Below are positions 9,994 through 63,893 of a stretch of 64,000 nt of DNA, piece after piece (positions within the stretch are counted from its first letter, which is position 1; each line of letters opens with the position of its first letter). The translations under genes were made by a program, and so were the position numbers. The notes beneath the pieces were generated by a model that saw only the letters and a program-made list of their open reading frames with translations, was not told where the DNA came from and ran no database searches. Source of the stretch: Lachnospiraceae bacterium (GTDB taxonomy: Bacteria; Bacillota; Clostridia; Lachnospirales; Lachnospiraceae); contig JAKSRW010000012.1 in assembly GCA_024403355.1 (NCBI GenBank), positions 16,797 to 80,796 on the forward strand, in the 5' to 3' direction.

Positions 9994-10004
9994 GAAACCA
10001 CCTC

Positions 10005-32642: not shown

Positions 32643-32702
32643 AAATAAATTTCCGGACTGAGTGATTATTTCACCCTGTATTTTTAGAGAAAGGCATAAC
32701 AA

Positions 32703-35700: not shown

Positions 35701-35807
35701 GCTATGCACCTTATATGAGCTATGAGGATATTATTGCCAAAGCGGATGCAATTCTTGACGGATATGAAATCCCTGCCCGCATCAAGGCTGAAAACGGTAT
35801 AAAATAA
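32703..35807 (+). CDS. TIR-domain protein with a TM helix, a heptad coiled coil and a large C-terminal beta-propeller (WD40/PQQ-like)
   Basis: N-terminal TIR (YDAFISYRHSEHD…FRDQDELPLASN…WCKKEIE). TM AAIWGSISAAVLIFALVCIIMLF. Repeats QNAEITKQNEEIT…QNDEIT. About eight xS/TxDGKY beta-strand repeat signatures. Confidence 0.75.
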   Translation: MSLENVHYDAFISYRHSEHDMFVATNLQKKLEAFKLPKPLAANANGKTRIERVFRDQDELPLASNLSDPIEEALKNSDFLIVICSPRLPESMWCKKEIETFAALHGRDRILAVLCEGEPAESFPPFLQSETVETVNEQGEKILVTRAIEPLAAEARAKTQKETKKLLDDAVLRIAAPIFNLNYDDLKQRHKEQRFKKLAAIWGSISAAVLIFALVCIIMLFRISAQNKTIEQRNAEIETQNAEITKQNEEITLKSQEILKQNEEISNKNNEISKQNDEITRQRDEIAAQYIAAAKNYAVSMVSVSDRLISGGRRIDAIAALRNAMPASIDGDELPYSAEAHSALANLTEAYNDGSTFIPSRVIETPFTISSYSVSPSGKTVAIYDIEFGVQVFDTTTGRLIYENTNASGDYSYSATLVNDKSLILDNNGLCKTDLETGEESSYTDNYDCFSSIFSVWDCISMPNCGRYIITDNKNILVFDAADDSLKAQLNLNADFENSTRSLNSVGITDDGKYLYALVLTNYSDSQELSIYDLTDGSLCNSTPLDIPLSASIASDGKRVFVSYPYTDPNVKYLFSDAKIEAYSIKTGKLLWENTYKQYGIDYIGEITYCSDGDYLLGCSSSNFESIDVKTGEIIEHISLDSMKMNYSIRNNGRLVLIFCNDESVLLWSPLTNRYYEYTDTLYKFAPKETMLSCGMYGSTIIVCPSNENYLAIYEQSKVEQFPLLGNARSSDRLSANGKYAVHQAGDGYSVYSTENGQDLFAIGETGYLAHFTDDGKYLVNTEDDVVNIFDIAEAKLSHSIYLPDLTSINAETCMSPTGKYVEITERGSDYSIIGKDIFLTESGDFVTSAPANRDTILTFADGRDIYASTYSAAANSNTSSVKLYNFGADEPYAEKELDIRFLSDMFFTDDAKYLFAEYNNSTIEIYDTDSLQLVNTHYGISKKPMSAHYIKEHDIYGLFFGDEMYLLNSSMEVISKITGAHKYDAEHDAFVIFVDDEISYAPYMSYEDIIAKADAILDGYEIPARIKAENGIK

Positions 35808-36496
35808 TGAATCTCAGATATGAAACAAAAAGACTCATCCTGGCGGCCGGCAATGATAGTATGGCCGGCGCCGTGGCTGATTATCTTACGAGAAACCGTG
35901 AGGATTTTTCGAGATACGATGTCGAAATGTCAGATGAGTATTACACCGCCGACTATCAGGCCAGAGCCCTGAAGGCTGAGCTGCATCTTTTACTGCGCTC
36001 GGCGGGCTGCCGCTTCTACCTCTTTTTGAAGAAGCCCTCGGACGATATCAGGCTTTCAGAGCTTCGTGCAAGCGCCGGTATCGACTCATTTTCCGGAACC
36101 GATACCTTCGGGGCCTCCCGACAAAAGGAGGAGCTTTATAATAAATACGCCTCCGAGCTGAGCAGGATTTCGTTAGATAAACGCAGAATTATCGGTAATA
36201 TCAGCTTTGCTTACCTTAACGGTGAGGACGGTCACCAATGCACTCTCGGCTACAAAATAGACAGTGACTACCGCCGCAGGGGCTACGCCTACGAGGCTGC
36301 CTCATTTTTACTTGATATCGTAACAAGCGAATTTTCAGGCATAAATCTGATAGAGGCGGATATCCTTCCCGAAAACAGGGCCTCCCTGGCACTTATTAAA
36401 AAGCTGAAATTTGAATACACCGGTCTTAAAAGAAGCGGCCACAATATAGCCGGCATGGACCGTGACAATTTAAAATTCGCATGGATACGCAGCTGA
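35807..36496 (+). CDS. GNAT-family N-acetyltransferase
   Basis: Start overlaps the stop of the TIR gene (ATGA). Acetyl-CoA-binding-type motif (…RRRGYAYEAA…). Confidence 0.65.
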   Translation: MNLRYETKRLILAAGNDSMAGAVADYLTRNREDFSRYDVEMSDEYYTADYQARALKAELHLLLRSAGCRFYLFLKKPSDDIRLSELRASAGIDSFSGTDTFGASRQKEELYNKYASELSRISLDKRRIIGNISFAYLNGEDGHQCTLGYKIDSDYRRRGYAYEAASFLLDIVTSEFSGINLIEADILPENRASLALIKKLKFEYTGLKRSGHNIAGMDRDNLKFAWIRS

Positions 36497-36548
36497 TTTT
36501 TCAGTCTCTGTATCCAAAAGACAACTATATTTAGTAAATGGAATTATT

Positions 36549-37130
36549 ATGACTGCAAAAAATAATAGCGCATCAAAGAAAACTATTGAAGATAGGGCAA
36601 AAGAAGATATAAAATATATGAAAAAGGCACTGGCACAGGCCAAATGTGCCATAAAGCTCGGTGAGGTTCCCATCGGCTGCGTAATAGTCTGCGACGGCAA
36701 AATCGTAGGCCGCGGCTTTAATAAGCGCAATACCAGAAAAACCACCCTTGCCCATGCGGAAATTACCGCGATAGATAAGGCCAGCAGAAAGCTTGGTGAC
36801 TGGCGACTCGAGGGATGCACGATGTATGTCACGCTTGAGCCCTGCCAGATGTGCTCAGGTGCCATCGTCCAGTCCAGAATCGACCGCGTGGTAATCGGTG
36901 CCATGAATCCGAAAGCGGGCTGCGCAGGCTCTATTCTGAACCTTCTGAACCGCCCCGAATTCAATCATCAGGTGGAAATCACCTACGATGTATGTGCCGA
37001 ATTAAGCTGTGAAATTCTGCAGCTTTTCTTCACTGACCTGCGTAAACGCAACAAGGCAGAAAAGGAAGCCCGAAAAAAGGCCGAGCAGGCAGCCGCCGAA
37101 GCTGCCGGGGAGTCAGAAGTTCAGTCCTGA
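36549..37130 (+). CDS. tadA: tRNA-specific adenosine deaminase
   Basis: HAE…PCxMC zinc-deaminase signature (LAHAEITAI…TLEPCQMCSGAI). Confidence 0.85.
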   Translation: MTAKNNSASKKTIEDRAKEDIKYMKKALAQAKCAIKLGEVPIGCVIVCDGKIVGRGFNKRNTRKTTLAHAEITAIDKASRKLGDWRLEGCTMYVTLEPCQMCSGAIVQSRIDRVVIGAMNPKAGCAGSILNLLNRPEFNHQVEITYDVCAELSCEILQLFFTDLRKRNKAEKEARKKAEQAAAEAAGESEVQS

Positions 37131-37157
37131 AGCAAATGAGAAAGGATTCCGTTTGAT

Positions 37158-39134
37158 ATGATAATTCAGATTGATATTAATTTTTCACCTAATTTCATAT
37201 TGAAGCATCAGTTCGACCGGGTGCTTCCCGTAGACCTGGCAGTAGCCTCATTAAAGGCTCTGAAGCTCGAGCAGTTTGAAGCCCTCTCAAGCGACCTCAC
37301 AAAGGCCAGCTGCAGGGCTAATTACAAAAGCTGCAGTGAGCTTCTGTCTCTTGTGATTCCGGCTCTTTCAAATACCTCCAGACTCAGTTCTGAGGACTTT
37401 ATAATCGAGGACAACGGGAATTTTATAAAGGCCTTCGCCCCCGAATGTCTGACAATCACACTTAATGAACCTGCATCAAATAATCCCGCATCAAAGCAGT
37501 CAATGCATGATATCAATAACAAGGTGGGCTGGGATGATTTCAAGGAGCTCTGTGCCGAAATTATGACCGTGGCTCCCCAGATTAAGCGAAACGGTACCTT
37601 TAAAAGCTTCATGTTCCAGAATTACCTTATCTCGGTAAATGAGGGCTACGGTCTTTCTACCGCTCTGGACGAATTCGCGGATCTGATTGAAAAGCTCGAG
37701 CTCTTTCAGTTTCTTGGTGACCAGCATGTACTCGAGGTTCACCTTACGACAAAATCCGGCGGAAGCGATACAATGACCCTCGACGAGGCCAGCGATGCCC
37801 TCTACAATACAGACGGCCGCGGCAAGCTTATCTGCTTCGATATTAGTGAATTTATCGAAAAATCAAAGCATACCGAGTTCAAACAGTTTATCCAGAAAAT
37901 GGTGGACCTTCAGGAATATTATCTCTTTGTATTCCGCGTGCCCTTCCTCGAACCGGATGCATTAAAAACCATTCAGAGACTGCTGGCAGACGTGCTTTAT
38001 ACCCGTGTCATCACGGTTCAGCCCTTCAACAATGAGCAGCTGAAGGAATGCGCAATCCGCGCACTTTCGGAGTTTGGCTACGCAGCCGATGAACAGGTCT
38101 GGGATGTATTCTTCTCGCGTCTGAGTGAGGAAAAGAGTGACGGCCGCTTCTACGGAATCCAGTCCGTCCGCAAGGTAATTTACGAAATGCTCTGGCTTAA
38201 GGCCAAGGCAGCCGCAGCCAATCCGGATGTTGACGAAAAGCTCATACACCGTGAGGAAATACTTGAGCTTTCAGCCAGCTACCTTAAGAAGGCAAAGGAC
38301 GGCTTTGATTCACTTGCAGAGATGGTCGGCATGGAAAAAATTGCCGAACGCATACGTGAAATTGTGGCTCAGGTTCGCCTCGCCATTGAAAATAAAACCA
38401 TGGAGCGTCCCTGTCTGCACATGCGCTTCGTAGGTGCTCCCGGTACAGGAAAAACCACCGTTGCCCGAATACTCGGTCAGATTTTCCGCGAGAACGGAAT
38501 CCTTCGAAACGGATATTTCTTCGAATTTTCAGCCCGGGACCTGTGCGGCGAATATGTAGGTCAGACAGCACCAAAGACCTCCGCAATCTGCCGTGACGCA
38601 TACGGCTCGGTACTCTTTATAGATGAGGCCTACGCCCTTTATCAGGGTGACGACCGAGGCAATGACTACGGCCGCGAGGCCCTTACTACCCTTGTTTCAG
38701 AAATGGAGAATCACCGAGATGATATGGTGGTGGTAATGGCCGGCTATAAGGATGATATGAACAAGCTGATGGAGGGAAATGCGGGACTTCGAAGCAGAAT
38801 GCCCTTCCTTCTGGAATTTGAGAGCTATTCAAAGGCACAGCTTTTAGAGATTTTTATGTCCTTTGTAAGCAGGCATTTCAAATACGAGGAGGACTTCACA
38901 GAGGCCGCCCGTCAGTATTTTGATTCACTCTCGGACGATTACATGAAATCCGCAGAATTTGCAAATGCCCGTTTTGCCCGAAATCTTTATGAGCGCTGCT
39001 GGTCAAAGGCCGCAATGCGTACCTCTCTTTCGGGAGTAAAGGATATCATACTGAACCGTGAGGACTTTACAGCCGCCTCAAGCGAAAAGGAATTTTCGGA
39101 AAAGCTCGCTATTCACAGTAAAATCGGATTCTGA
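37158..39134 (+). CDS. SpoVK/CbbX-type AAA+ ATPase with a ~400-aa N-terminal domain of unknown function
   Basis: Walker A GAPGTGKTT, Walker B LFIDEAY, and an AGYKDDMNKLMEGNAGLRSR region characteristic of the SpoVK/CbbX/EccA clade. Confidence 0.75.
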   Translation: MIIQIDINFSPNFILKHQFDRVLPVDLAVASLKALKLEQFEALSSDLTKASCRANYKSCSELLSLVIPALSNTSRLSSEDFIIEDNGNFIKAFAPECLTITLNEPASNNPASKQSMHDINNKVGWDDFKELCAEIMTVAPQIKRNGTFKSFMFQNYLISVNEGYGLSTALDEFADLIEKLELFQFLGDQHVLEVHLTTKSGGSDTMTLDEASDALYNTDGRGKLICFDISEFIEKSKHTEFKQFIQKMVDLQEYYLFVFRVPFLEPDALKTIQRLLADVLYTRVITVQPFNNEQLKECAIRALSEFGYAADEQVWDVFFSRLSEEKSDGRFYGIQSVRKVIYEMLWLKAKAAAANPDVDEKLIHREEILELSASYLKKAKDGFDSLAEMVGMEKIAERIREIVAQVRLAIENKTMERPCLHMRFVGAPGTGKTTVARILGQIFRENGILRNGYFFEFSARDLCGEYVGQTAPKTSAICRDAYGSVLFIDEAYALYQGDDRGNDYGREALTTLVSEMENHRDDMVVVMAGYKDDMNKLMEGNAGLRSRMPFLLEFESYSKAQLLEIFMSFVSRHFKYEEDFTEAARQYFDSLSDDYMKSAEFANARFARNLYERCWSKAAMRTSLSGVKDIILNREDFTAASSEKEFSEKLAIHSKIGF

Positions 39135-46250: not shown

Positions 46251-46529
46251 TAGTTATTATTCTAACACTTGTTAAAGATATTGGCAATCCGCTTCGCCGC
46301 CTGCTCATATAAAAGCTGCACCTCGCTCTTTACAAGCTGTCAATCATAATTACCTCAAAAGCCGTATCAGTATTAGAAATCTAATTTGCCGTTTTCGAGG
46401 AATAAATACGCTTATTTTTGCTGCAAACCGCTATACAATCGTCATTTTATAGGCTATAATCTAATCACAGGCAGCAAAGAAAAGCCTGTCACACACAGTG
46501 CGTTAAGCACGGAAGGAGAGGTTATTTTT

Positions 46530-48023
46530 ATGAGTACGGGACAGATTATTTTAATCGCCGCAATCGTGGTAGCGGTACTAATCATCTTATTAACAGGTTA
46601 TGTTAAGGCACCGCCGGATGTTGCTTATATCATTTCAGGTATGAAGAAGAACCCCAAGATTCTCATTGGTCGTTCAGGCATCAAGGTTCCATTCTTTGAG
46701 CGAAAGGATAACCTGATTGTTAAGCAGATAAGTGTAGACATTAAAACAAACGGTTATGTACCTACTCTCGACTTCATCGGTGTAGATATCGATGCAGTTG
46801 CAAAAATCAGAGTGAAGACAGATCCCGACGGAATCAAGCTTGCTATGAAGAACTTCCTTAATATGAAGGAGGAGCAGATTATCACAGCTCTCACAGATTC
46901 CCTTCAGGGTAACATGCGTGAAATTATCGGTACTGTTAAGCTCAAGGAATTATGTACAGACCGTAAGAAGTTCGGTGATGAGGTTCAGGAGAAGGCCCAG
47001 AAGGATATGAACGCCCTGGGTATTGAAATCATCTCATGTAACATTCAGAGAATCGATGACGAGAAGGGTCTTATCGTTGCCCTCGGTCAGGACAATATGT
47101 CACAGATTCAGAAGGATGCTTCTATCGCAAAGGCTCAGGCTGAGCGAGATGTTGCAATCGCAGAGGCAGAGGCTAGCAAGGCCGCAAATGAGGCCAGAGT
47201 TTTAGCCAACACCGATATCGCTATTAAGCAGAACGAATTAAAGATCAAGCAGGCTGAATTAAAGAAGGAATCAGACTTAAAGCAGGCTGAGGCCGATGCA
47301 GCCTACAAGATTCAGGAAGAGTCACAGCGTAAGATTATCGAGGCTACAGCCGTTGAGGCTGATATCGCCCGTCAGCAGAAGTCAGTTGAGCTCCGTAAGC
47401 AGGAAGCAGAGGTTAAGGAGCAGGAGCTTGCCGCTTCAATCAAGAAGCAGGCAGATGCCGACAGATACCGTCAGCAGCAGATGGCCGATGTAGAGCTTTA
47501 CCGTCGTCAGAAGGACGCTGAGGCCCGCAAGTTCGAGATGGAACGTGAGGCAGAGGCTATGCGTATCAAGGCCGATGCCGTTAAGTATCAGGCTGAGCAG
47601 GATGCAGAAGCTATCCGTGCAAGAGGTGTCGCTGAGGCAGAGGCTATCCGTGCAAAGGGTATCGCTGAAGCAGAAGCTACCGAAAAGAAGGCAGAGGCTA
47701 TGTCAAAGATGAAGGAAGCCGCAGTCCTTGAAATGTTCTTCAAGGTACTTCCCGAAATCGCTGCAAACGTTGCAAAGCCTCTCGAGAACATCGACAAGAT
47801 TACAATGTACGGCGAAGGCAATACAGCAAAGCTTATTGAGGATATCACAAAGTCCACAACCCAGATTTCTACCGGTCTTACCGAGGGTCTCGGCTTCGAC
47901 TTAAAGAGCATGCTCGCAGGTGCACTCGGCGGAAAGGTAGTCGGTGATGCAGTTAAGAATGCAGTAAAGTCTGAGGATAAGGATACTTTCACAGAGACTG
48001 CTGCCACAGAAGCTGCAGAATAA
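46530..48023 (+). CDS. flotillin-like SPFH protein (FloT/YuaG family)
   Basis: N-terminal TM, SPFH domain and an EA-rich coiled coil (AEAEAIRAKGIAEAEA). Start moved to MSTGQ, where RBS GGAAGGAGAGG is present. Confidence 0.78.
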   Translation: MSTGQIILIAAIVVAVLIILLTGYVKAPPDVAYIISGMKKNPKILIGRSGIKVPFFERKDNLIVKQISVDIKTNGYVPTLDFIGVDIDAVAKIRVKTDPDGIKLAMKNFLNMKEEQIITALTDSLQGNMREIIGTVKLKELCTDRKKFGDEVQEKAQKDMNALGIEIISCNIQRIDDEKGLIVALGQDNMSQIQKDASIAKAQAERDVAIAEAEASKAANEARVLANTDIAIKQNELKIKQAELKKESDLKQAEADAAYKIQEESQRKIIEATAVEADIARQQKSVELRKQEAEVKEQELAASIKKQADADRYRQQQMADVELYRRQKDAEARKFEMEREAEAMRIKADAVKYQAEQDAEAIRARGVAEAEAIRAKGIAEAEATEKKAEAMSKMKEAAVLEMFFKVLPEIAANVAKPLENIDKITMYGEGNTAKLIEDITKSTTQISTGLTEGLGFDLKSMLAGALGGKVVGDAVKNAVKSEDKDTFTETAATEAAE

Positions 48024-48166: not shown

Positions 48167-49081
48167 TTAGTTGATTTTAGTCGATTCGACCTGATGTGCC
48201 AGCAGCTTATCAGCCAATGCTTCAAACTTCTCCTGATCTGCTGCCGCAGACGCATTAATAATCAATTGCGACAAAATGTTTTCATCATTAACTGACTTAA
48301 TACGTTCTGTCAGACTGTCTGATATGGTAAAACGGGTGTTAATCACCTGTAATGCAAGATTGTTTTGTCCAATCTGCACACCCTTCTGTATACCTTCCTG
48401 CATGCCATTATTAAATTCTTTTTTCATCATTTCCTCGAACAGCATGTACCTCTCCTCCATATCACGACTGGTTTTCACCTTTTTCACAGAATTCTGCAGC
48501 TGCCTTACAAAACTGTCACCATAGTCTTCCTCGCTGGCTTCAGGTCCTGCAGCTACATACCTTAAGAATTTAACAAGTGCCTCTGGCACCTCGTTTTCAT
48601 TGGTTCCTACCGTACTCAGAAACACCGTATGCCTTCCGTCAGAGTAGGAAATTTTCTCGTCTTCCGCGACATACTGGCTGATGGTGTATCTGTACTTTTT
48701 CAGTTTTAACGGATCATAATCACAAATAAAGAGAACATAACTGTCCGGAAGCTTCTCATAGTCTTGTCCGGAAAGAAGCATTTCCATGTCCATATGGCTG
48801 TGATAATACCTGGCTCGCTTACTAACAGGCTGTGCATCCGCCTGCATCTCCACATTGAAGTGTGTTCCCGCCGTATCCTTAAGAAATACATCAAGCCTTA
48901 CACCCTTGTACTCCGGGTTATAGACAATGCTTTTCTCATACGAGATATCAACGTGATCCACCTTTACTCCAAGTGCAAGCTCAAGCAGGCCCTTGGCATT
49001 CTCCGGTTCAAGCATCACCGCTGCGAACATGAAATTGTTCTTTATCGTGAGATCCTTAAGTCTTTTTCTATGGTATTCCAA
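48167..49081 (-). CDS. Rpn/YhgA-like PD-(D/E)XK recombination-promoting nuclease / putative transposase
   Basis: N-terminal …DLTIKNNFMFAAVM… and …DVFLKD…NVEMQ… motifs typical of the family. Confidence 0.65.
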   Translation of the reverse strand: MEYHRKRLKDLTIKNNFMFAAVMLEPENAKGLLELALGVKVDHVDISYEKSIVYNPEYKGVRLDVFLKDTAGTHFNVEMQADAQPVSKRARYYHSHMDMEMLLSGQDYEKLPDSYVLFICDYDPLKLKKYRYTISQYVAEDEKISYSDGRHTVFLSTVGTNENEVPEALVKFLRYVAAGPEASEEDYGDSFVRQLQNSVKKVKTSRDMEERYMLFEEMMKKEFNNGMQEGIQKGVQIGQNNLALQVINTRFTISDSLTERIKSVNDENILSQLIINASAAADQEKFEALADKLLAHQVESTKIN

Positions 49082-49360
49082 TAAATCCCTCCTTTTTGCA
49101 GAGGAATTCTAAAATTATTATACACTTAGGAATACTATTCAGTCAAGCGTAAATGAAAACATTTTCGTTTTTACGTAATCTTTATAAATTCAAGAAAAAA
49201 TCACAACCACCCTTCCAAAGGGTGGTTTGTACTTGGGCTATAAGCCCTTGCTACTAGGCCAGCGTCTCAAGGCGCTGGCTTTTGATTCGTCGCTACTCCT
49301 GAAGGGGTATTATTACTACTTCACATTAACCCTTAAAAGGGTCTTCATATTCTTTAACAC

Positions 49361-49564
49361 TCAATATTCCATAACAAGTTCAAAATCAGAATCTTCAAGA
49401 ACACAATCAAAAGAGGATCGGTGGCATGTGGGTATTTTTTTTGCAGAAACCGGATCATCAACATATTCGATACCATATTTGCAAAGGACTAGGCCCCAAT
49501 ATGCTTCTGCTTCTTCCGGAAAATCTGTAACAATGTTCTCATAAACACCAAATGCTTTGTCAAA
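49361..49564 (-). pseudogene. decayed fragment of a Zn-ribbon-TPR-TIR-LRR family gene (paralog of 54387-56810)
   Basis: Translation …EAEAYWGLVLCKYGIEYVDDPVSAKKIPTCHRSSFDCVLEDSDFE aligns with aa ~63-125 of the 807-aa protein. No start codon; upstream stop codons are present. Confidence 0.55.
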
Positions 49565-49783
49565 TTCACATGGTCAATTACTGTTCTTGGAGAACTTTAT
49601 ATTTATTGAAGATTAAGAAAAATATTAAACAAAGCAGCTAAGTTTTTACATCAATAAAAACCCTTACGAAAATACGCAGTGGCTTCATTAACAGTATTCC
49701 GTTGCCTAACATAATGTATAATCTGGTAAACGTCAAATTTCCTTTAAACTTCAGATAACAACTACAAACGCCAGTTTTTGTTC

Positions 49784-50320
49784 TCACTTTACCAGTAGCT
49801 TTCTCAGGTTATTTAAATCTGTTTGAGATAAAAGAACCCTTGCAGTTAAGTTTTTATTACTATTATAATCATCAAAAATCACATACTTTCGAGTTTTATC
49901 CAACAAGTACACATTGCTATGGGCTATTGAATTTCTTATATGGCGCAACAGACATACCAGTTCATCTTTTTCATCATTTTTGTAACAACAAACAAATCCC
50001 TTACTTTTTCGATTAACTGTATGATTAGCTTTTAATCTATATATATCTAACTGCTTTTCATTGATATTACCTGACTTATATATATAATAATTACCTTGTT
50101 TTATGGCAATCTTTGCTATAAATTCTTTCCATATTGTACTCACACCCCTTGCAGGAATAGACTTTGCACTCTTACTGTCCACTGTAGGAGCTAAATGTAA
50201 ATAAAAACTAAACAAAGATTTCATTTTTTCATCTACTATTTCGAAAGGAGCTATTCGATTTTTTAAAATATCACTAATTTCCATTTTTCTCATTTCTTGT
50301 TTGTAAATAATAGACCACAA
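49784..50320 (-). CDS. HEPN-like protein (putative RNase or Abi component)
   Basis: R-x4-H motif (LRHIRNSIAHSNVY) near the C-terminus. The true start may be MRKMEISD or MEISD. Confidence 0.45.
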   Translation of the reverse strand: MWSIIYKQEMRKMEISDILKNRIAPFEIVDEKMKSLFSFYLHLAPTVDSKSAKSIPARGVSTIWKEFIAKIAIKQGNYYIYKSGNINEKQLDIYRLKANHTVNRKSKGFVCCYKNDEKDELVCLLRHIRNSIAHSNVYLLDKTRKYVIFDDYNSNKNLTARVLLSQTDLNNLRKLLVK

Positions 50321-50347
50321 GTTTCAACTGCTTAATTAAAATACGCC

Positions 50348-50500
50348 TTATTGTTTCAGCATTTTCTCTACACCCTTCTTCCTTTGATGATGTAACTTAT
50401 GAAATGTCATTGTACAGCCGCAATATTCACAGATTCCAAGAGTTTTATCTTCAAATAACTCTATACCTCCACCAAACATTTTGCATTTTAAGATTGCCAT
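50348..50500 (-). CDS. 50-aa zinc-ribbon peptide; N-terminal gene fragment of the Zn-ribbon-TPR-TIR family
   Basis: MAILKCKMFGGGIELFEDKTLGICEYCGCTMTF…; compare MAILKCKMCGGTLEINSDETISTCEYCG in the 807-aa protein. Weak RBS. Confidence 0.35.
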   Translation of the reverse strand: MAILKCKMFGGGIELFEDKTLGICEYCGCTMTFHKLHHQRKKGVEKMLKQ

Positions 50501-50612
50501 TGTATCATACTTCACAATTACAGTATCATTCCAATACAGATTGTTTTATTTTTTTAATCGCAAGCATTCGTAATATTATTAAAAATCATAATTTATCCTT
50601 TTCCCAATCAGT

Positions 50613-50747
50613 CTCACACCTTCAAATATCCCTTCGGATTACGGCTTGTAAATGTCATTGTACAGCCACAATATTCACAGGTCCCAAGAGTTTTATCTTC
50701 AGATAACTCTATATCTCCACCACACATTTTGCATTTTAAGATTGCCA
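50613..50747 (-). CDS. 44-aa zinc-ribbon peptide; second N-terminal fragment of the same family
   Basis: MAILKCKMCGGDIELSEDKTLGTCEYCGCTMTF… RBS GGGAGA. Confidence 0.35.
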
Positions 50748-50792
50748 TTTTTTTATTCTCCCTGTATAATCTGTATTCCCCTTACTCCAAAG

Positions 50793-51563
50793 CTAAATAT
50801 CCCAAATAACGTTTTTATTCAACTCACTTAATCTTCCGGTTTCGACACCCTCTGTATACAACGGAGAGCGAATCAATCTATCTTTTCGCATTCTATTTAA
50901 ATATTTGTCAGGTAATGTTATTCTAATACTTGTTAGTTTTTCATTTTGGGCTATTTTATTTATTTCGTCTGATAATCTAAGCACTAATCTGGATTCGACC
51001 TCGTATGACCATGCATAATTTTTACAAAAAATATCATCATGGACCAGTATTGGGGGATTCACAGTAGCATGATCATTTCTAACAGTTATTTTTGCTTTAT
51101 TTTTACATAAATCAACATATAGTACATCTGTCATAAACAAATCAAACGAACCATCTGTTTTTTTTAACTTATATTTTTTATCAAACTGACCATTCCCATC
51201 AAATAGCCCCAGTTCAACTGTATCTATATCCAGAATACTTTTTATCACAGAAGGTAAAAAATCAATTACAGCGCCCTTTTTACCATGTTCTCCGCTATAA
51301 AGCATCCACATAGCAATATTCTCTTTAGTTGAACATGAAAAGCTATGACCATAGACCTTTTTTTCATTCATACTAATTCGGTCCTCTTTATCATTCCATT
51401 TTTGCCCATCACTTAAATAGATTTTTCCTGTAAGCAAGAATGCAAGAGCCCTTTCCATAGAGGTATACACTTTATAGTTTTGATGAAGTCCTCCATTAAA
51501 ACGTAATGCTTTAGCTAAACTATTACTATCAGAAATATTATTTTTCAGTAATTTTATTCCCAT
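50793..51563 (-). CDS. DUF2971-like protein
   Basis: Motif …GHSFSCSTKENIAMWMLYSGEHGKKGAVIDF matches the SFS…N..MW..Y…HKG hallmark recalled for DUF2971. Confidence 0.5.
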   Translation of the reverse strand: MGIKLLKNNISDSNSLAKALRFNGGLHQNYKVYTSMERALAFLLTGKIYLSDGQKWNDKEDRISMNEKKVYGHSFSCSTKENIAMWMLYSGEHGKKGAVIDFLPSVIKSILDIDTVELGLFDGNGQFDKKYKLKKTDGSFDLFMTDVLYVDLCKNKAKITVRNDHATVNPPILVHDDIFCKNYAWSYEVESRLVLRLSDEINKIAQNEKLTSIRITLPDKYLNRMRKDRLIRSPLYTEGVETGRLSELNKNVIWDI

Positions 51564-51626
51564 ATAACCAAACTATTTCCTAACACTAATTTAATCATTT
51601 TAAACACTTAATTCCCTAATCAAACT

Positions 51627-52322
51627 CTACTTACTCACCTTACAAACTCGATTTCTCTCAGCAAGCATTCCCTTAAGGTCCCTGCACAGAGCAGTTATTT
51701 TTTCCGGATGTCCAGCCGCAACTGCTGCCTGCATTTCATTTGCAACCGCCATCATATCTCGTTCAATTTCTTCTGTTGCTTCATTTGATACAGGATCGCT
51801 GTATCTGAATTCCTCTGCAAGAGCATCCAAATTCTTTTTAACCGCTGAATCCTCGCACGTGCTTGCAACTGATGAAATAACAGACCGCAGATCTCTCATT
51901 ACTGATACATCTTTCTTAAGTTTTATGTCCTGTTTTTCTACCTCATCGCGCATAGTTTCCGCCGTAATACATCCAATAGCCGCCGCACCGAGAATAATAA
52001 TATTTAATACTATAATTATCCAATTAGGAAATGCTGATACAAAAGTTGAAAGAAGCATTCCTGCAAGACTGACCGCAAGCTGTACTACCAGATAAATAAA
52101 TCCTATTTTCGCAATCGGAAATCCATAGAATCTGCTTTTGGCATCCTCGTCTCTGAAAGCAACCCTGAATACATAAAGCTGCATCAAAACAGCTATCACT
52201 CCGAATATATATGAGCACCAAAATCCCGAATTTTTGCTAAATGGTACCACAAATGCTATTACAGAAAAAATCACAATAATTATTGCCAGAATCGCAAATC
52301 CCCTATTTCTGTTTTTGTTCAT
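51627..52322 (-). CDS. four-TM membrane protein with a cytoplasmic helical C-terminal domain; partner of the SPFH protein
   Basis: Start lies 4 nt from the stop of the upstream SPFH gene. Confidence 0.6.
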   Translation of the reverse strand: MNKNRNRGFAILAIIIVIFSVIAFVVPFSKNSGFWCSYIFGVIAVLMQLYVFRVAFRDEDAKSRFYGFPIAKIGFIYLVVQLAVSLAGMLLSTFVSAFPNWIIIVLNIIILGAAAIGCITAETMRDEVEKQDIKLKKDVSVMRDLRSVISSVASTCEDSAVKKNLDALAEEFRYSDPVSNEATEEIERDMMAVANEMQAAVAAGHPEKITALCRDLKGMLAERNRVCKVSK

Positions 52323-52326
52323 AGGC

Positions 52327-54201
52327 TTATTCTCCTCTCTTTGCTCCGCAATTACTGCAGAAATTGCCTGTTATACCACTTTGTCCGCATGCACAATTCC
52401 AGGTATCAGATACAACCGGCATCGGTCTTTTCGCCCCACAGTTATTACAGAAATTTCCGATTACACCGGTCTGTCCACAACTACAATCCCAGGTATCCGT
52501 CTGTACAAGCATTGGTTTCTTTGCCCCGCAATTATTACAGAAATTACCAATTATTCCTTTATGACCGCAGGCACAATCCCAAGCTTCTGCCATATTTTGT
52601 GGCTGAACCGGATTTGTAATATACGCAGGTACACTCATCTGCTGATTATTTCCCTGCCCCATATTTCCAAAATTATTCATCATCTGACCAATCTGAGGTG
52701 AAATAGCAGATGCTGCTGCCAGTCCGACTCCAAGGCCCATCATATCTCCAACAATACTGCTTCCACCGCCAGCAGAAATAGCAGGCCCCATATTTCCTAT
52801 ACCCTCTGCATAAGCCTTCTGAACCTCTGCAGTGAGTACATCCTTCTGGCTATATCCTTTCGCAGCCATGATTTCAGCTTCGGTAAGTCCCTGCATACGT
52901 GCTGCCTGCGCTTCTGCCTGTGCCTCAATTACACGGCGTTCCGCTTCTCTTTTTGCAATCTCGGTTTCTGTAGTCTGCTGTTCAAGAACGGCTGCACGAT
53001 GTGCTGCTTCAATCGCTGCTTTGCTCTGTTCTTCTGCAGTTCTGTAGATAGTCTCCGACTGAGCCTTTGCAGTTCTGACTGTAGCCTCAGCCTGCAGCAT
53101 TCTTGTTTGAAGTGTAATTGTATGTAATTCCTTAATCCTCTTAAAGTTAGGGTCATCTTCAGGAAGAACTATATTTGTAACATAGAATTGCGGTATAGTA
53201 AGTCCGTATTCCTCAAAACCGGGAATCAACTTCTCACGAAGATTTGTGGATATTATGTCCAGTTTTGAATCTATCTCTAATAAATCGATAGCTTCATTTG
53301 TTATCACTGATGAAAGATTAGTTTTTAATGTACTTGATATTAATGGTCTAAAAGAGTTCTGAATTGATTTTGTTAACCCCGGGCCTTCTTCCCAGGCTAT
53401 TCCCTTTGTTGTACCAACAAGCTTTATTAATAATTTTCTCGAATTACTTACTTGAAGATTCAATTCTCCTGAAGCGCCTATTTGAAGAGGCGTTCCCGTC
53501 AGAGGATCTATGAATCTGACCTTGTCCGGTGTTCCCCACTTAATCGCCATCTGAACAGTTTTATTGATGAAATATACTTCAGAATGGAAGGTCCCTTCTG
53601 TGTCCGTAGGAAGCTGATACGTCTTTTCTAATAAAGGCAACTGCTGTGTTTCGAGAGTATAACGACCCGGGCCGAATAAATCGAGAGCCTGTCCGTCCTT
53701 AAAGAAAATCGCTTCCTGACTCTCATGAACAATAAGCTGAGACCCATAGTTGAAATCTTCAATAGGATGCTTCCAAATAAATGTATTATTATCACCCTCA
53801 TATTTTATGACACTCGCCAGTCCATCCCTTTTAATCTTTTCAGATGTAAGTCTTTCCTGTACATCATTCATATAATCACACACCGGGCAAACATAGGTAG
53901 ACGCACTTCTTGTAGTCATTAATCTAACGCCGCACTGTGCACATGAAAATTCTTCAACTTTCTGTTGTTCAGCCATTGTATTTATCTTTCCATTACAAAT
54001 GGGACATACGGCATCAGCACCTTTTGTCTGATCAAACACAACCTGATTTCCACAATGTGGACATTCTCTTGATGCCAATTTATCTGTACGGATATTAATT
54101 ACATTTCCGCAGGAACAATCAATTTTTTTCTTTGCAAAAAAACCTGTTTTTGCCTCTGCATATTTTCCACAAACAGGGCATTCAATAGCAAACTTAGCCA
54201 T
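52327..54201 (-). CDS. SPFH/band-7-like protein flanked by multiple zinc ribbons
   Basis: Three to four N-terminal CxxC…CxxC ribbons, a central SPFH-like domain, and three tandem C-terminal W-x-C-x-CG…GNFC-x-NCGAK ribbons. Confidence 0.65.
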   Translation of the reverse strand: MAKFAIECPVCGKYAEAKTGFFAKKKIDCSCGNVINIRTDKLASRECPHCGNQVVFDQTKGADAVCPICNGKINTMAEQQKVEEFSCAQCGVRLMTTRSASTYVCPVCDYMNDVQERLTSEKIKRDGLASVIKYEGDNNTFIWKHPIEDFNYGSQLIVHESQEAIFFKDGQALDLFGPGRYTLETQQLPLLEKTYQLPTDTEGTFHSEVYFINKTVQMAIKWGTPDKVRFIDPLTGTPLQIGASGELNLQVSNSRKLLIKLVGTTKGIAWEEGPGLTKSIQNSFRPLISSTLKTNLSSVITNEAIDLLEIDSKLDIISTNLREKLIPGFEEYGLTIPQFYVTNIVLPEDDPNFKRIKELHTITLQTRMLQAEATVRTAKAQSETIYRTAEEQSKAAIEAAHRAAVLEQQTTETEIAKREAERRVIEAQAEAQAARMQGLTEAEIMAAKGYSQKDVLTAEVQKAYAEGIGNMGPAISAGGGSSIVGDMMGLGVGLAAASAISPQIGQMMNNFGNMGQGNNQQMSVPAYITNPVQPQNMAEAWDCACGHKGIIGNFCNNCGAKKPMLVQTDTWDCSCGQTGVIGNFCNNCGAKRPMPVVSDTWNCACGQSGITGNFCSNCGAKRGE

Positions 54202-54386
54202 ACCGTAGGCCTCCCTTATATTTTAGTAATTTCCATATGCTCAAATACAAATTCTATACTCATCACTAGAATTTCATTTCGTGTTCTTTCTGTTTTTTTA
54301 TTCACAACATCAATGTCTGCCAGCATATTCTTTTGCATTCTCATTTTCTTTATATGGTAACAGCATACTTAAAATTTTAACCATAA

Positions 54387-56810
54387 TTAATAGTCTTTTT
54401 TTACTCTACAAAACGAACATTTTTTAATTATTAACCCCTTAAATGCAGCCCCACAATACTGGCAACGACCATTATTTCGATACTCTTTCATACGATCCAA
54501 TTTATTTTGTTGCTCTTGAAATCTTTTTTCTTCTTCTTTCTGTTGCTCTTGACGTATTTTTTCTTCTTCTTTCTGTTGCTCTTGACGTATTTTTTCTTCT
54601 TTTTTTCTTTGTTCTATAATCGACTTTTCCGACCAGGTAATTATCTCAGCTTTTTCAACACCCATATCTTTCTTTGCTATATTTTTTAACTTGTCAGGAA
54701 TAATAATTTGCGTCAAACTGCTACAGCCGCTAAATGCCCATCTGCCAATACTTGTTACACTATTCGGTATTTCGATTTGCGTCAAATTACTACACCTGCT
54801 AAATGCACTTTCTCCAATACTAGTTACACTATTCGGTATTTCAATTTGTGTCAGACTGCTGCAATCTGAAAATGCACTATCACCAATACTTATGACACTG
54901 TTGGGTATTTCAATTTGTGTCAAATTACTGCAGTTATAAAATGCACTATCACCAATACTTGTGACACTGTTGGGTATTTTTATTTGTGTCAAATTACTGC
55001 AGTTATAAAATGCACTATCACCAATACTTGTGACACTGTTGGGTATTGCAAATTCACTTATATCTCCATTAAAAGGAAAAAATGTATGTAGAATAGTTAA
55101 ATCATCGTTATATAATACTCCCCTATCTAACTTATAATATTTGTTTCCATCAGGAATTATAATCTGTGTCAAATTACTGCAGTTACTAAATGCACCTTCG
55201 CCAATAAATGTAACACTATTCGGTATTTCTATTTGTGTCAGACCGCTGCATTCTAAAAATGCCCAATCACCAATACTTGTAATACTGTTTGGTATTTCTA
55301 TTTGTCTCAAGCTACTGCATTCCGAAAATGCCCAACCACCAATACTTGTGACACTGTTTGGTATTTCTATTTGTGTCAGACTACTGCATTCTGTAAATGC
55401 ACAATCACCAATACTTGTGACACTGTTGGGTATTTTTATTTGTATCAAATTACTGCATTTATAAAATGCATATTCTCCAATACTTGTAACACTATTCGGA
55501 ATCTTGAATACAGATAACTCTGAGGCATCTGAATGAATATCAATTCTTTGCAATTTACCATTTACAATCCTAAAAATATCAGCAAAATCCCGTCGAAAAT
55601 TATTATTTATTTTAGTTTGAACATCTTTGTGCGCATATTTCATTACCTTACTGTAATTTTTAGTTTTAGTAATATCTTCCTTAAGTCCAAACTCAACATC
55701 AAAACTTTTAATTTTACATTCGACCATCAATTTAGCTACATACGCATCCCCACATTCCGGATTAATATCAAGAACACGCTCTGCATATTCCTCTGCAGAA
55801 TCCCATTCTTCATCCTCAATGAACATGAACGCACGTTTTAAAAGTGGTGCAACATTTGAGACAGACATATTATTCTGCTGTACATCATTTCCATTATCTG
55901 CTGTTTTACCCTCATCCTTTTTTATAACCTTTTTAATTCCCCGTAAAATATCATTAATAAATCCTATTTTCGACATATCCTGCGCCTGCAAATGCGCAAA
56001 TTCTTCCGGGAGTTCATATGCGTCCATATCCTTATAGCAAGGGATTAGCAGTTTACTGCGATCATTCTTCATAAGTTTCATAAAGCGTGACCATTCGTTC
56101 TTTACCCATACAGCACTAAAGTATTCCGGCTTTGAACCGATAGAAATCATTACCTTTGAACTATTGATTGCAGCGAATATATAGGGCTCATACTCCTGAC
56201 CAAGCTTGTCCTCCAAAGTAATCGCAGCATAGAAAACCTTAAAGCCTTCCTGTGTGAGCTGATGATATATGTCATTAGCTAAAACACTGTCAAATGTACG
56301 ATTACCATTTTCATCAGTTTCCTTGTAACTGATGAAAACATCATAAGGTTCTTCATTCTGGGAAATAGCAAGGATTCCCTTTTGTATCTCATCTATGGCC
56401 TTTGCTTCTGTCTCATAAATAGTTTTCTGTCCGATATCCGCATATTTTATCGCAAACCTATAATCCTCATCAGCAGTTATCGCATCAAAAGAAGACCTAT
56501 GGCAGGTTGGAACACGCTTGAGTGTTTTAGGGTCTTCAACATATTCAATACCATATTTACAGAGAATTATTCCCCAATATGCTTCTGCCTGTGTATTGTC
56601 AATTTCAATTATTTTGCTATAAATTTCTTCAGCTTTGTCAAACTCCGACTTCATACGAAGTGTATTTGCACGATTGAAAAGATTCCCGAGGATATCGTCT
56701 GTAATTTTCGGAATCGTCTGTTCTGTACCACAGTACTCACATGTCGAAATAGTTTCGTCTGAATTAATTTCTAATGTACCGCCACACATTTTACATTTTA
56801 ATATTGCCAT
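54387..56810 (-). CDS. Zn-ribbon-TPR-TIR-LRR(BspA-type) protein with a C-terminal coiled coil and zinc ribbon
   Basis: TIR signature YDVFISYKETDENG…KVMISIGSKPEYFSAVWVKNEWSRF. About twelve 23-aa IPNSVTSIGxxAFxxCSxLTQIE repeats. Tandem repeats EEKIRQEQQKE. Terminal CQYCG…CSFC. Confidence 0.8.
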   Translation of the reverse strand: MAILKCKMCGGTLEINSDETISTCEYCGTEQTIPKITDDILGNLFNRANTLRMKSEFDKAEEIYSKIIEIDNTQAEAYWGIILCKYGIEYVEDPKTLKRVPTCHRSSFDAITADEDYRFAIKYADIGQKTIYETEAKAIDEIQKGILAISQNEEPYDVFISYKETDENGNRTFDSVLANDIYHQLTQEGFKVFYAAITLEDKLGQEYEPYIFAAINSSKVMISIGSKPEYFSAVWVKNEWSRFMKLMKNDRSKLLIPCYKDMDAYELPEEFAHLQAQDMSKIGFINDILRGIKKVIKKDEGKTADNGNDVQQNNMSVSNVAPLLKRAFMFIEDEEWDSAEEYAERVLDINPECGDAYVAKLMVECKIKSFDVEFGLKEDITKTKNYSKVMKYAHKDVQTKINNNFRRDFADIFRIVNGKLQRIDIHSDASELSVFKIPNSVTSIGEYAFYKCSNLIQIKIPNSVTSIGDCAFTECSSLTQIEIPNSVTSIGGWAFSECSSLRQIEIPNSITSIGDWAFLECSGLTQIEIPNSVTFIGEGAFSNCSNLTQIIIPDGNKYYKLDRGVLYNDDLTILHTFFPFNGDISEFAIPNSVTSIGDSAFYNCSNLTQIKIPNSVTSIGDSAFYNCSNLTQIEIPNSVISIGDSAFSDCSSLTQIEIPNSVTSIGESAFSRCSNLTQIEIPNSVTSIGRWAFSGCSSLTQIIIPDKLKNIAKKDMGVEKAEIITWSEKSIIEQRKKEEKIRQEQQKEEEKIRQEQQKEEEKRFQEQQNKLDRMKEYRNNGRCQYCGAAFKGLIIKKCSFCRVKKDY

Positions 56811-57019
56811 TGAATCACATCCTCCATTTATTTTGTAACAACAGACTGCTAATTTCTCATTTCAATTGCTCTAAATCCCCATTTTTACCTATGTACGGGT
56901 AATATATTATAATAATACTTTATTTTTTCTTCCAAATCAACCATGTGTGGGTAATTTTTGCTTTTTCATCTGTTATCATTAGTGTATGATTTACTACTAT
57001 TTCATCCAGAGGTGACAGA

Positions 57020-57271
57020 GTGAAATATTCTGAATTATATGCCTTCAGAATTAAGCAATTATGCACGAAGAAGGGCATTACGATAAACCGATTAGCAACA
57101 TATTCGAATGTTAAACAATCTACCATAGACAATATAGTTCACGGGGCGAGCAAAAATCCAAAAGTTCGTACCTTACATAAAATAGCAACCGTTTTTGATA
57201 TGACATTAAGTGAATTCCTTGATTTTCAGGAGTTGAATGACTATTCCATTGATGACGAGGAAGAAGATTAA
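57020..57271 (+). CDS. XRE-family HTH transcriptional regulator
   Basis: …GITINRLATYSNVKQSTIDNIV… HTH. Terminator hairpin at 57277-57325. Confidence 0.75.
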   Translation: MKYSELYAFRIKQLCTKKGITINRLATYSNVKQSTIDNIVHGASKNPKVRTLHKIATVFDMTLSEFLDFQELNDYSIDDEEED

Positions 57272-57471
57272 CAGGGTATATGAAAATGAACCGAACATTT
57301 TCATATACCCTGTTTTTTTTATTCTCTTTTTCAAAAAATTAACAATCTATTTACAAATTTGGAACGCATTTGGAACGCTTTGGGGCCCGTGAGGGAACAG
57401 AGAACGAGTATATTTATTGCAGCAGGCAGACAAATAGCGCCTGAAAAAATATCATTTTGGAGGCATTTATT

Positions 57472-62599: not shown

Positions 62600-63259
62600 T
62601 CAAAACTCCTCCAAAAGCATTTCAACTTCACAATTTAAGACCTTCGCCATTCTGACCAGATAATCCACATTGGCCTTATTAATATCCTTCGCTCTCTGCT
62701 CGTACTGCTGGATGGTTCTCAGAGGAACCCCGCTCCTTTCCGCCAGCTGACGCTGAGAAATCCCTGCGTAGCAGCGAAAGCGCTTCAGTCTGCTCTCAGT
62801 CTGTGCCCGCCTGCGGATTTCATCGACACCGTCAACAAACTGCGTAATATCCATCTCATGATACTTATCATACATATTCCAGTAAGTATTGATATCCACC
62901 CCATCAGTAATCTTAGAAAAAGGAATTCCCTTAACCCACTGATAATATGCCAGCACCCATCCCAGCCAATAGGATTGGCTTCTGTCAAGCGTGTAATACT
63001 CCGGCTTACACAGGTCCTGATAGCCATTCGCTTCCAATATATCAAAAGCCAGTTCACGTCCCGAGCGTCCCTCAATTACAGAAGAGCTTCCCACCTCAAT
63101 TTTTTTTGAAACTGACGAATTTAAAAACATATGATAAAAATGCTTGAGCTCAACACCGTAAAAATTCATGCCGGTATCAAACATCCAGCCCATCACTCTT
63201 TGTGCACGCGGCAGCAAATCATAATCGTAAGCGTTCATCCTCCGGTCCGACCTCCTCAT
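62600..63259 (-). CDS. protein with an N-terminal uncharacterised domain and a C-terminal XRE-type HTH
   Basis: …YAGISQRQLAERSGVPLRTIQQYEQRAKDI… HTH. Overlaps the upstream gene. Confidence 0.55.
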   Translation of the reverse strand: MRRSDRRMNAYDYDLLPRAQRVMGWMFDTGMNFYGVELKHFYHMFLNSSVSKKIEVGSSSVIEGRSGRELAFDILEANGYQDLCKPEYYTLDRSQSYWLGWVLAYYQWVKGIPFSKITDGVDINTYWNMYDKYHEMDITQFVDGVDEIRRRAQTESRLKRFRCYAGISQRQLAERSGVPLRTIQQYEQRAKDINKANVDYLVRMAKVLNCEVEMLLEEF

Positions 63260-63893
63260 TCATTAAAGACATCATGTACAGATTTCCTTTTGTCCATGAT
63301 TCTTTTCTCATTTCTCTATAGCGGCTTCTCGCTGATGTATCCCGCTCCTTCTTTGCATTGTACCAGACAGCCGACTCTGCTTCCTCTGCTCCGATAAACT
63401 CGATTTTTGAAAAAGCTCGTTCGCTCTTCAGCACAACCTGTTCACCCAGACATCCCAATTTCATTGCCTTTGATAACGTCTGCAACGAAATACTATTATT
63501 GATAAAATCCGAAGCATATGAAAAGTAACTGTCATCCGCTCTGTATCCTATTATAATATCAGCCTCCATATAAGGCAGTTGAAAATTAGTTTTCAGATAT
63601 TCAACCGCTTCCCGCGCGAAATCGCTTTGGACATCAAAAGTCCGATTTTCCAGCAATACCGTAATCCAATGAAGAATCGAATACCTTGAATCATTTAGCC
63701 GAAGTATGTTCATATTATCTAAATCAATGCTATATTCGTTACAATAACCATTCCTGTTTTGATCGACGGCCCATTCAAAGGCAAGCGGCTTATGTTCAGT
63801 ACAATAGAATCCTCTTCCATAATCATTATGCAATTTGCCTTTGCCCAAAATCGGCCTCTCAATAATAAATTCCGAGCCATGATATAAAGTCAT
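63219..63893 (-). CDS. hypothetical protein (DUF3990-like, N-terminal LYHGS motif)
   Basis: Sequence MTLYHGSEF…GFYCT… The family assignment is from memory only. Confidence 0.45.
   Translation of the reverse strand: MTLYHGSEFIIERPILGKGKLHNDYGRGFYCTEHKPLAFEWAVDQNRNGYCNEYSIDLDNMNILRLNDSRYSILHWITVLLENRTFDVQSDFAREAVEYLKTNFQLPYMEADIIIGYRADDSYFSYASDFINNSISLQTLSKAMKLGCLGEQVVLKSERAFSKIEFIGAEEAESAVWYNAKKERDTSARSRYREMRKESWTKGNLYMMSLMNEEVGPEDERLRL

Follow-up and report, generated by a model that had tools for sequence, protein, structure and literature searches.

A low-GC gene block of a Lachnospiraceae bacterium carrying a conserved TIR-SPFH-membrane protein module with a candidate role in defense

Core genes of the low-GC block

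This study analyzed a block of immune-like genes located at approximately 49.2-57.3 kb of a 64,000-nucleotide stretch of DNA from a Lachnospiraceae bacterium (contig JAKSRW010000012.1); the whole stretch is hereafter called the window. The block is a 7.7-kb stretch of low GC content (0.31-0.43, compared with 0.50-0.51 at 58-61 kb and 0.42-0.50 at 46-49 kb). All of its genes lie on the minus strand save a divergent XRE regulator gene on the plus strand, and the minus-strand genes are transcribed in the order TIR, SPFH, 4TM (a protein with four transmembrane [TM] helices), DUF2971-like, and HEPN. An earlier note on this DNA, made from the letters alone, had recognized immunity-type domains here, namely a HEPN with an Rx4H motif, a DUF2971-type protein, a TIR-LRR-TPR protein, and an XRE regulator, and the Pfam, PADLOC, and NCBIfam scans bore these assignments out. 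Three of the genes constitute the core of the block:

54387-56810, minus strand: core gene 1, TIR protein of 807 amino acids (aa) with TIR_2 (6.3e-12), LRR_5 (5.5e-109), and TPR matches and Zn-ribbons at both ends
52327-54201, minus strand: core gene 2, SPFH protein of 624 aa (Band_7_1, 1.7e-37)
51627-52322, minus strand: core gene 3, 4TM protein of 231 aa with four hydrophobic TM helices

The TIR protein begins with a Zn-ribbon (C6/C9/C24/C27) followed by a TPR-like module and a TIR domain at approximately residues 150-300. After the TIR domain come a TPR, two BspA-type leucine-rich repeat (LRR) blocks, a coiled-coil repeat, and a C-terminal Zn-ribbon (C783-C801); Pfam and sequence scans of the protein identified no TM segment, signal peptide, or secretion domain. 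The TIR_2 match reached 46.5 bits in Pfam against a gathering score of 28. Residue E239, in the motif VWVKNEW, aligned with the matching position of Brucella TcpB and with the Glu of SKWCLMEL in the TIR domain of flax L6; that Glu is the NADase catalytic residue of plant TIRs. E239 was invariant across 30 aligned homologs; the WxxNEW motif was found in 184 of 199 family open reading frames (ORFs), and the N-terminal Zn-ribbon in 189 of the same 199. Judged from its sequence, the TIR domain appears capable of catalysis.

The first 420 aa of the TIR protein are represented by at least 7,984 related clusters at 90% identity. Among the TIR-module matches listed, identities ranged from 60% to 79% and lengths from 358 to 735 aa, and the TIR proteins of the family have a median length of approximately 776 aa. 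The TIR part of a predicted structure of the module was mediocre (predicted local distance difference test [pLDDT] score of 47-75), and a fold search with this 420-aa model, in which the TIR part was poorly predicted, returned TPR proteins only, all at TM-scores below 0.25. A PDB sequence search with the TIR-module profile likewise yielded TPR matches only. In the DNA encoding the LRRs (window 54505-55587), eight repeat copies spaced 69 nucleotides (nt) apart form two blocks with 61-82% nucleotide identity, and the coiled coil EEKIRQEQQK is encoded by three 33-nt repeats, a pattern suggestive of recent expansion of the repeats or of recombination.

The SPFH protein carries three N-terminal and three C-terminal Cys4 Zn-ribbons (the C-terminal ones of the form CxC...CxxC), a coiled coil, and a Gly-rich linker. 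A TM scan of this soluble Band_7_1 protein revealed no TM segment. Its core is 82-90% identical among the best 120 relatives, far more conserved than the adjoining 4TM protein (approximately 50%), and a PDB sequence search returned no match for it. A canonical FloT-type flotillin with one TM hairpin (46386-48023, plus strand; NF058507, 3.6e-82) is encoded 4 kb from the Band_7_1 gene, and because of its presence there the genome can be said to have a separate housekeeping SPFH protein.

The 4TM gene starts 4 nt past the SPFH stop codon, and its product had no Pfam, NCBIfam, or PADLOC match. In the AlphaFold2 model (pLDDT 85), TM4 extends into a long cytoplasmic helix and a helical bundle. The alignment revealed the conserved motifs SRFYGFPIA, RYSDP, and ERNRxC, all of which lie on the predicted cytoplasmic side; this placement follows from the positively charged N-terminus, from which the topology was derived. 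The 4TM family comprises 1,938 clusters at 90% identity and 3,455 representatives at 50%, all of approximately 225-235 aa and none with a Pfam domain.

Conservation and genomic context of the module

A sample anchored on the TIR module comprised 74 loci from species-representative genomes, distributed among Lachnospiraceae, Oscillospiraceae, Ruminococcus, Acutalibacteraceae, Christensenellales, Erysipelotrichales, Allobaculum, Coprobacillus, and other taxa. A same-strand SPFH gene was present in 39 of the 50 TIR-anchored loci of at least 12 kb. The gap between the SPFH and 4TM genes was mostly 1-34 nt, one to four TIR paralogs lay on one or both sides, and the order found in the window, TIR-SPFH-4TM, was among the commonest. 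The test was also performed in reverse with metagenome loci anchored on the 4TM protein: SPFH and TIR were both present in every one of the 14 loci that extended 6 kb or more to each side, and TIR was present in 42 of 48 loci with at least 4 kb on one side. Loci lacking the 231-aa 4TM protein had a shorter one (141-151 aa) after SPFH, homologous in the membrane part. The TIR, SPFH, and 4TM genes are one conserved same-strand module, the functional unit of which is TIR(n)-SPFH-4TM.

These results change the grouping given in the earlier note. That note had listed the TIR protein and the SPFH pair as separate items; the domains were right, and synteny joins all three genes in one module. It had also taken the consecutive genes as a single island, of which the TIR-SPFH-4TM core is indeed conserved; the HEPN, DUF2971, and XRE genes were each found in only 1-3 of approximately 157 related loci and are optional cargo, that is, rare accessories. 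The comparison of neighborhoods across genomes that the note had proposed revealed that the triad recurs among known anti-phage genes in gut and rumen Firmicutes.

The TIR paralogs of one locus are approximately 60% identical over the N-terminal 296 aa, and alignable C-termini (at least 150 aa) were found in only 32 of 78 paralog pairs. Sampling of 118 C-terminal heads revealed 34 with DUF6273, 22 with RCC1-type propellers, at least 15 with TPR, and 2 with LRR_5. The constant part of the family thus comprises the Zn-ribbon, the TPR, and the TIR with its catalytic Glu, and the variable part is the C-terminal domain. Because LRR_5 accounted for only 2 of 118 C-termini, the LRR of the window is a rare head on a common chassis; the TIR-LRR architecture noted earlier is present here, as a rare variant of the family. 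DUF6273 is a C-type-lectin-like domain that is hypermutated by diversity-generating retroelements in receptor-binding proteins of gut phages (PMC10743442). Stand-alone BspA-type LRR_5 ORFs were observed on the same strand beside or inside the clusters at nine of our numbered loci (L005, L012, L013, L014, L015, L027, L034, L035, and L068), and LRR modules may be exchanged between such ORFs and the TIR proteins.

The module is host-borne and essentially absent from phage collections. A tblastn search of 50,697 phage records returned no match to the TIR module, and in IMG/VR the 4TM protein had no match and the TIR module matched only two contigs. A phage-borne element was ruled out by this near-absence.

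We further examined the genes inside and around related clusters. A scan of 56 ORFs nested between cluster genes of other genomes with Pfam and PADLOC identified SIR2_2 (three), AbiH (two), DUF4760 (two), DUF2971 (two), and pEK499 HEPN (two) genes. Also nested were a UG26-type reverse transcriptase (1.2e-139), RES, DUF559, FRG, and DUF4365 genes, an MTES_1575 restriction endonuclease, and ORFs with LmuA-like and ThsA-STALD-like matches. Among the 147 nearest flanking ORFs of 87 loci, mobile-element genes were represented by six phage-type integrases, five resolvases, Mob relaxases, and IstB, and defense genes by MADS (mad2, mad3, and mad8), Mokosh (MkoA and MkoC), PsyrT, PbeA, DrmC, PARIS AriA, and a type IV restriction endonuclease. 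The flanks were otherwise unconserved between loci, and the insertion sites varied. This context points to conflict rather than housekeeping.

Some associated families were observed in the same loci. A helical family of 150-210 aa with an R-N-x-x-I-H (Rx4H) motif is encoded directly upstream of SPFH in 11 loci (L010:13043-13663, L014:13224-13862, L027:6921-7373, L036:12701-13150, L074:1514-1960, and six more), in several of them with a gap of 2-19 nt; it had no Pfam match, and the motif suggests that it may nevertheless be another HEPN. Four clusters (L029:9069-9998, L037:8955-9998, L041:2573-3175, and L066:6858-7910) contain nested genes of another family, whose products combine a Zn-ribbon at the N-terminus with a conserved C-terminal motif, GGCY(V/I)ATCVYGSYDCPEVWTLRRYRD...YYAISP. 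In L162 (17708-18292), a gene for PBECR4, a Barnase/EndoU/RelE-like nuclease, directly follows two TIR paralogs.

Comparison with known systems and possible function

We found no description of the module as a defense system, and no named system corresponding to it, in PADLOC, NCBIfam, the 2025 Thoeris catalogue, or the full-text literature. The earlier note had stated that the SPFH pair and the TIR-LRR protein match no named system, and this statement held. In the PADLOC scan, which that note had suggested, the SPFH and 4TM proteins had no match; the results revealed only a match of the DUF2971-like gene to PDC-S31 and a domain-level match of the TIR protein to PDC-S66 (9.2e-8, 29.9 bits), in which TIR residues 142-266 aligned with profile positions 135-248 of 282 and which is not full-length. 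The NCBIfam profile for Thoeris ThcB4 scored 18.5 bits on the TIR protein against a cutoff of 220. A December 2025 survey of TIR signaling systems lists 29 effector types, including many TM-protein effectors beside signaling TIRs; SPFH, Band_7, and flotillin are mentioned neither in its main text nor in its supplements. A full-text literature search for SPFH together with TIR, anti-phage, or defense terms identified nothing relevant.

The known systems nevertheless share features with the module. Thoeris (types I-XI) resembles it in having a TIR with a conserved catalytic Glu, several TIR paralogs beside one shared partner, and a defense-island setting. However, the partner here is SPFH plus 4TM without a known signal-binding domain, neither of which matched a recognized Thoeris effector (SIR2-SLOG, Macro-TM, caspase-like, DUF2270, DUF6650, SLATT, and others), and the TIR proteins are large, with a Zn-ribbon/TPR N-terminus and exchangeable C-terminal binding domains. 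SpbK of B. subtilis is a single-protein TIR NADase fused to a region that recognizes a phage protein and acts by abortive infection (PMC12847820). The combination of TIR NADase and phage-recognition region in one protein, with abortive-infection logic, is the likeness to the role proposed for the TIR proteins examined here; the present module differs in its tie to SPFH-4TM, its other N-terminal module, and its paralog arrays.

Among characterized SPFH proteins, YdjI of B. subtilis is the nearest. It is soluble, carries a low-complexity linker and a Zn finger at the C-terminus, needs the membrane proteins YdjG and YdjH, and links PspA to the membrane (PMC8581546). The window protein shares with it the Band_7 family, solubility, a low-complexity linker, a C-terminal Zn finger, and a neighboring membrane-protein gene, whereas the extra N-terminal Zn-ribbons and the obligate TIR neighbor are peculiar to the module. 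Judged by Pfam profiles, the 4TM protein shares no detectable domain with YdjG or YdjH.

Two further candidates were rejected. A STAND/NLR-type (Avs-like) TIR sensor was excluded because the 807-aa protein contains no NTPase (NACHT or NB-ARC); a TPR-like linker lies between its TIR and LRR. A polymorphic toxin was excluded because the constant and variable parts are reversed, the constant part being the enzymatic TIR and the variable part a binding domain; a secretion domain is also lacking.

Animal Toll-like receptors (TLRs) join LRRs and a TIR, and plant HIR proteins, which are SPFH proteins, form nanodomain complexes with NLRs. What they share with the module, LRR sensor plus TIR in a single protein and a membrane scaffold of the SPFH type, is an analogy only; in contrast to animal TLRs, the TIR here precedes the LRR in a cytoplasmic protein without a TM segment, and no homology is implied beyond the shared domains.

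From sequence and synteny, the module, widespread in gut and rumen Firmicutes, is best read as putative TIR-based immunity whose partner belongs to a class with no earlier link to defense. Guilt by association and the conservation of the catalytic residue make a defense function, taken broadly, reasonably probable. We regard as evenly balanced the more specific proposal that the block is a horizontally acquired defense-type island with a three-gene immune-like core in which SPFH-4TM is most likely the platform. By analogy with YdjI, which needs YdjG and YdjH, the 4TM protein would tether an SPFH oligomer to the cytoplasmic side of the membrane. The constant Zn-ribbon/TPR N-terminus would dock the TIR proteins on this platform, a step proposed because of the strict synteny and the strong conservation of the N-terminal module. 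The variable C-terminal head would then bind an invader-derived ligand; a sensor role is assigned to it because the N-terminus is constant and the C-terminus variable across the paralog arrays. The TIR domains, in which the Glu is conserved and activity is predicted, would cleave NAD+, and either NAD+ depletion or a product acting on SPFH-4TM would stop the infected cell. The DUF2971-like gene, predicted to have an ADP-ribosyltransferase (ART) fold, and the HEPN gene may be add-on toxin or abortive-infection genes, with XRE as the local regulator. More tentatively, an SPFH cage on a dedicated 4TM protein might serve arrays of TIR receptors with swapped heads as a platform at the membrane or as the executioner, and such arrays might form a widespread, undescribed class of TIR immunity.

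Several observations weigh against this interpretation. No SPFH gene was within reach in 11 of the 50 TIR-anchored loci of at least 12 kb, and some members of the TIR family may therefore work alone. The conservation of the TIR domain and of the SPFH core is unusually high for defense genes and would also fit a housekeeping role. The counts of defense-gene neighbors come without a background frequency, which leaves the enrichment qualitative, and in L162 the cluster lies among ordinary metabolic and housekeeping genes. A fold search with the 4TM model returned generic helical bundles only, and Pfam, PADLOC, and NCBIfam identified no recognizable nucleotide-binding domain in SPFH or 4TM.

The same components could instead constitute a Thoeris-like signaling system, in which the TIR paralogs are ThsB-like sensors making a cyclic ADP-ribose (cADPR)-type signal and SPFH-4TM is the activated membrane effector; this scheme differs from the platform proposal only in which component kills the cell. 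The arrangement of a single SPFH-4TM pair and one to four TIR paralogs is like that of a single ThsA and several ThsB proteins, the catalytic Glu is conserved, TM-protein effectors beside signaling TIRs are common in the 2025 survey, and the cytoplasmic domain of the 4TM protein is invariant in the alignment and carries charged motifs. Nevertheless, the scans of SPFH and 4TM revealed no SLOG, Macro, SLATT, or other known signal-binding domain, and SPFH/Band_7 is absent from the survey with its 29 effector types. The TIR proteins also have large sensor domains built in, an arrangement more characteristic of sensor-effectors that act by themselves, SpbK among them. We consider such signaling unlikely. 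An envelope-stress or membrane-organization module akin to YdjGHI/PspA, without any immune role, is improbable; the TIRs would then be NAD-linked or scaffold clients and the defense neighbors coincidental. What mainly speaks for it is the unusually high conservation of SPFH and TIR, and the Pfam family and architecture shared with YdjI (soluble, with a low-complexity linker and C-terminal Zn finger) and the housekeeping flanks of some loci are compatible with it. However, pspA was not among the 25 commonest families listed for the 56 nested and 147 flanking ORFs and does not occur in the window block, and a relation of the 4TM protein to YdjG or YdjH is unsupported because the protein has no Pfam match. 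The paralog arrays, in which binding domains are exchangeable, and the nested Abi, SIR2, RES, and reverse transcriptase genes are hallmarks of conflict systems, the FloT flotillin is already encoded nearby, and the low GC content and varied insertion sites also count against this view.

The genes could also be independent single-gene defense or toxin genes piled at one hotspot, with SPFH-4TM functionally unrelated to TIR. The sporadic occurrence of HEPN and DUF2971, the TIR-family members without a nearby SPFH gene, and the existence of single-protein TIR defenses such as SpbK (PMC12847820) would agree with such a hotspot. The reciprocal, near-obligate association (14 of 14 and 39 of 50 loci) and the tight same-strand spacing from Lachnospiraceae to Erysipelotrichales make it very improbable.

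TIR immunity is a theme common to bacteria, plants, and animals. If the platform proposal is true, the module would be a bacterial counterpart of receptor-TIR signaling in SPFH membrane microdomains, and bacterial SPFH (Band_7_1) proteins, for the most part without a concrete function so far, would gain one. To our knowledge, the partner of TIR in the bacterial systems characterized so far is always an enzyme, a nucleotide-sensing effector, or a simple TM protein; an obligate SPFH partnership, if true, would be a new effector or platform class for TIR immunity. The family is large and concentrated in gut and rumen Clostridia that are hard to study, and it may consequently be a major unrecognized part of their defense repertoire. 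The exchangeable heads, DUF6273 included, would represent a natural library of recognition domains.

Accessory genes, block boundaries, and other features of the window

The remaining features in and beside the block were as follows:

57020-57271, plus strand: XRE/Cro-type helix-turn-helix (HTH) regulator of 83 aa, divergent from the TIR gene (Pfam HTH_26, 6.8e-11; HTH_3, 5.4e-10)
56906-56935, minus strand: promoter-like site 5' of the TIR gene, TTGGAA-18-TATAAT, with 10 of 12 matches; a consensus match only
50793-51563, minus strand: accessory DUF2971-like protein of 256 aa (Pfam DUF2971, 19.6 bits against a gathering score of 22; PADLOC PDC-S31, 5.6e-6)
50653-50748, minus strand: TIR pseudogene fragment covering TIR residues 1-32 (N-terminal Zn-ribbon), 66% identity in tblastn
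50393-50500, minus strand: TIR pseudogene fragment covering TIR residues 1-36, 56% in tblastn, with one Cys changed to Phe; within a 55-aa ORF at 50348-50515
49784-50320, minus strand: accessory HEPN of the pEK499_p136 family (PF18736), 178 aa as the longest ORF (Pfam, 28.2 bits against a gathering score of 26.6)
49364-49567, minus strand: TIR pseudogene fragment covering TIR residues 56-123 (TPR-like module with a TCHR motif), 54% in tblastn (E 1.7e-20)
49205-49227, minus strand: terminator-like hairpin ending the minus-strand block, a 10-bp stem with five GC pairs followed by a T-run
48167-49081, minus strand: flanking Rpn-family recombination-promoting nuclease (TIGR01784, 78.5 bits against a cutoff of 52.1; PDDEXK_2)

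The DUF2971-like protein contains an ExE motif at residues 188-190 and the MWMLY motif. An ortholog with 38% identity occupies the same position in L096 (SPFH-4TM-DUF2971-TIR-TIR) and another occurs in L020; these two match DUF2971 at up to 1e-10. DUF2971 has an ART fold related to DarT and AbiGi (PMC12522546), and the lactococcal single-gene DUF2971 protein Aristaios is a validated abortive-infection system (PMC11381338). The window protein resembles Aristaios and PDC-S31 as a DUF2971-like protein with an ExE motif. It differs from Aristaios in that its 256-aa gene is nested in a TIR cluster and not on a plasmid, with a Pfam score just under the gathering score; a tblastn search of PLSDB plasmids returned no match.

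The HEPN protein, the true start of which is possibly M10 or M13, carries the Rx4H motif as R129-NSIA-H134 and is predicted to be an RNase. In L066, a gene flanked on either side by a TIR paralog encodes a HEPN homolog that shares the motif ELVCLLRHIRNSxAH. Operons that combine HEPNs of the pEK499_p136 family with ART-like genes have been described (Anantharaman et al. 2013, PMC3710099), and the window gene agrees with these HEPNs in its above-threshold match, its Rx4H motif, and the DUF2971-like gene approximately 470 nt upstream. It differs in sitting inside the remains of a TIR paralog, between the fragments at 50393-50500 and 49364-49567. The fragments at 50653-50748 and 50393-50500 are copies of a 248-nt tandem duplication (repeat family D2) with 91% DNA identity, and the fragment at 49364-49567 carries the direct repeats D5 and D7. 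In the simplest history, the ancestral array would have been TIR-SPFH-4TM-DUF2971-TIR, and the downstream TIR paralog would have been destroyed by the duplication, the insertion of HEPN, and a deletion adjoining the Rpn gene.

The island had been placed beside an Rpn nuclease gene, with decayed paralog fragments; the low GC content, the TIGR01784 match, and the tblastn matches of the three fragments agree with this description. No Rpn homolog was found in the related loci, and the Rpn gene does not belong to the module. Nor does the XRE gene count among the conserved parts of the module; it is a local regulator or accessory, HTH genes accounting for only 3 of the 147 nearest neighbors of related clusters. 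The promoter-like site (56935-56906) and the hairpin at 49227-49205 mark the ends of the minus-strand block, and another terminator-like hairpin lies at the end of the XRE gene (57270-57314). Rfam and tRNA scans of the window placed no match inside the block; the sole Rfam match of the window was a T-box leader (RF00230, 3680-3882, minus strand, 100.6 bits).

A second, unrelated TIR protein of 1034 aa is encoded elsewhere in the window (32703-35807, plus strand), with an N-terminal TIR_2/ThsB_TIR domain and a beta-propeller (PQQ_2/WD40-like). In the surrounding region (31056-39134, plus strand), a DHH/DHHA1 phosphoesterase gene precedes the TIR gene, and GNAT, MafB19-like/CMP deaminase, and AAA ATPase genes follow; these genes may constitute another TIR-based system. 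At 8536-12574 (minus strand), where the GC content is 0.31-0.35, an Hsp70-like ATPase gene (10005-11477) lies between genes for proteins of 485 and 365 aa without a Pfam match. At 62600-63893 (minus strand), a DUF3990 gene (4.5e-41) overlaps a gene for a 219-aa protein with a C-terminal HTH_3, a toxin-antitoxin-like layout.

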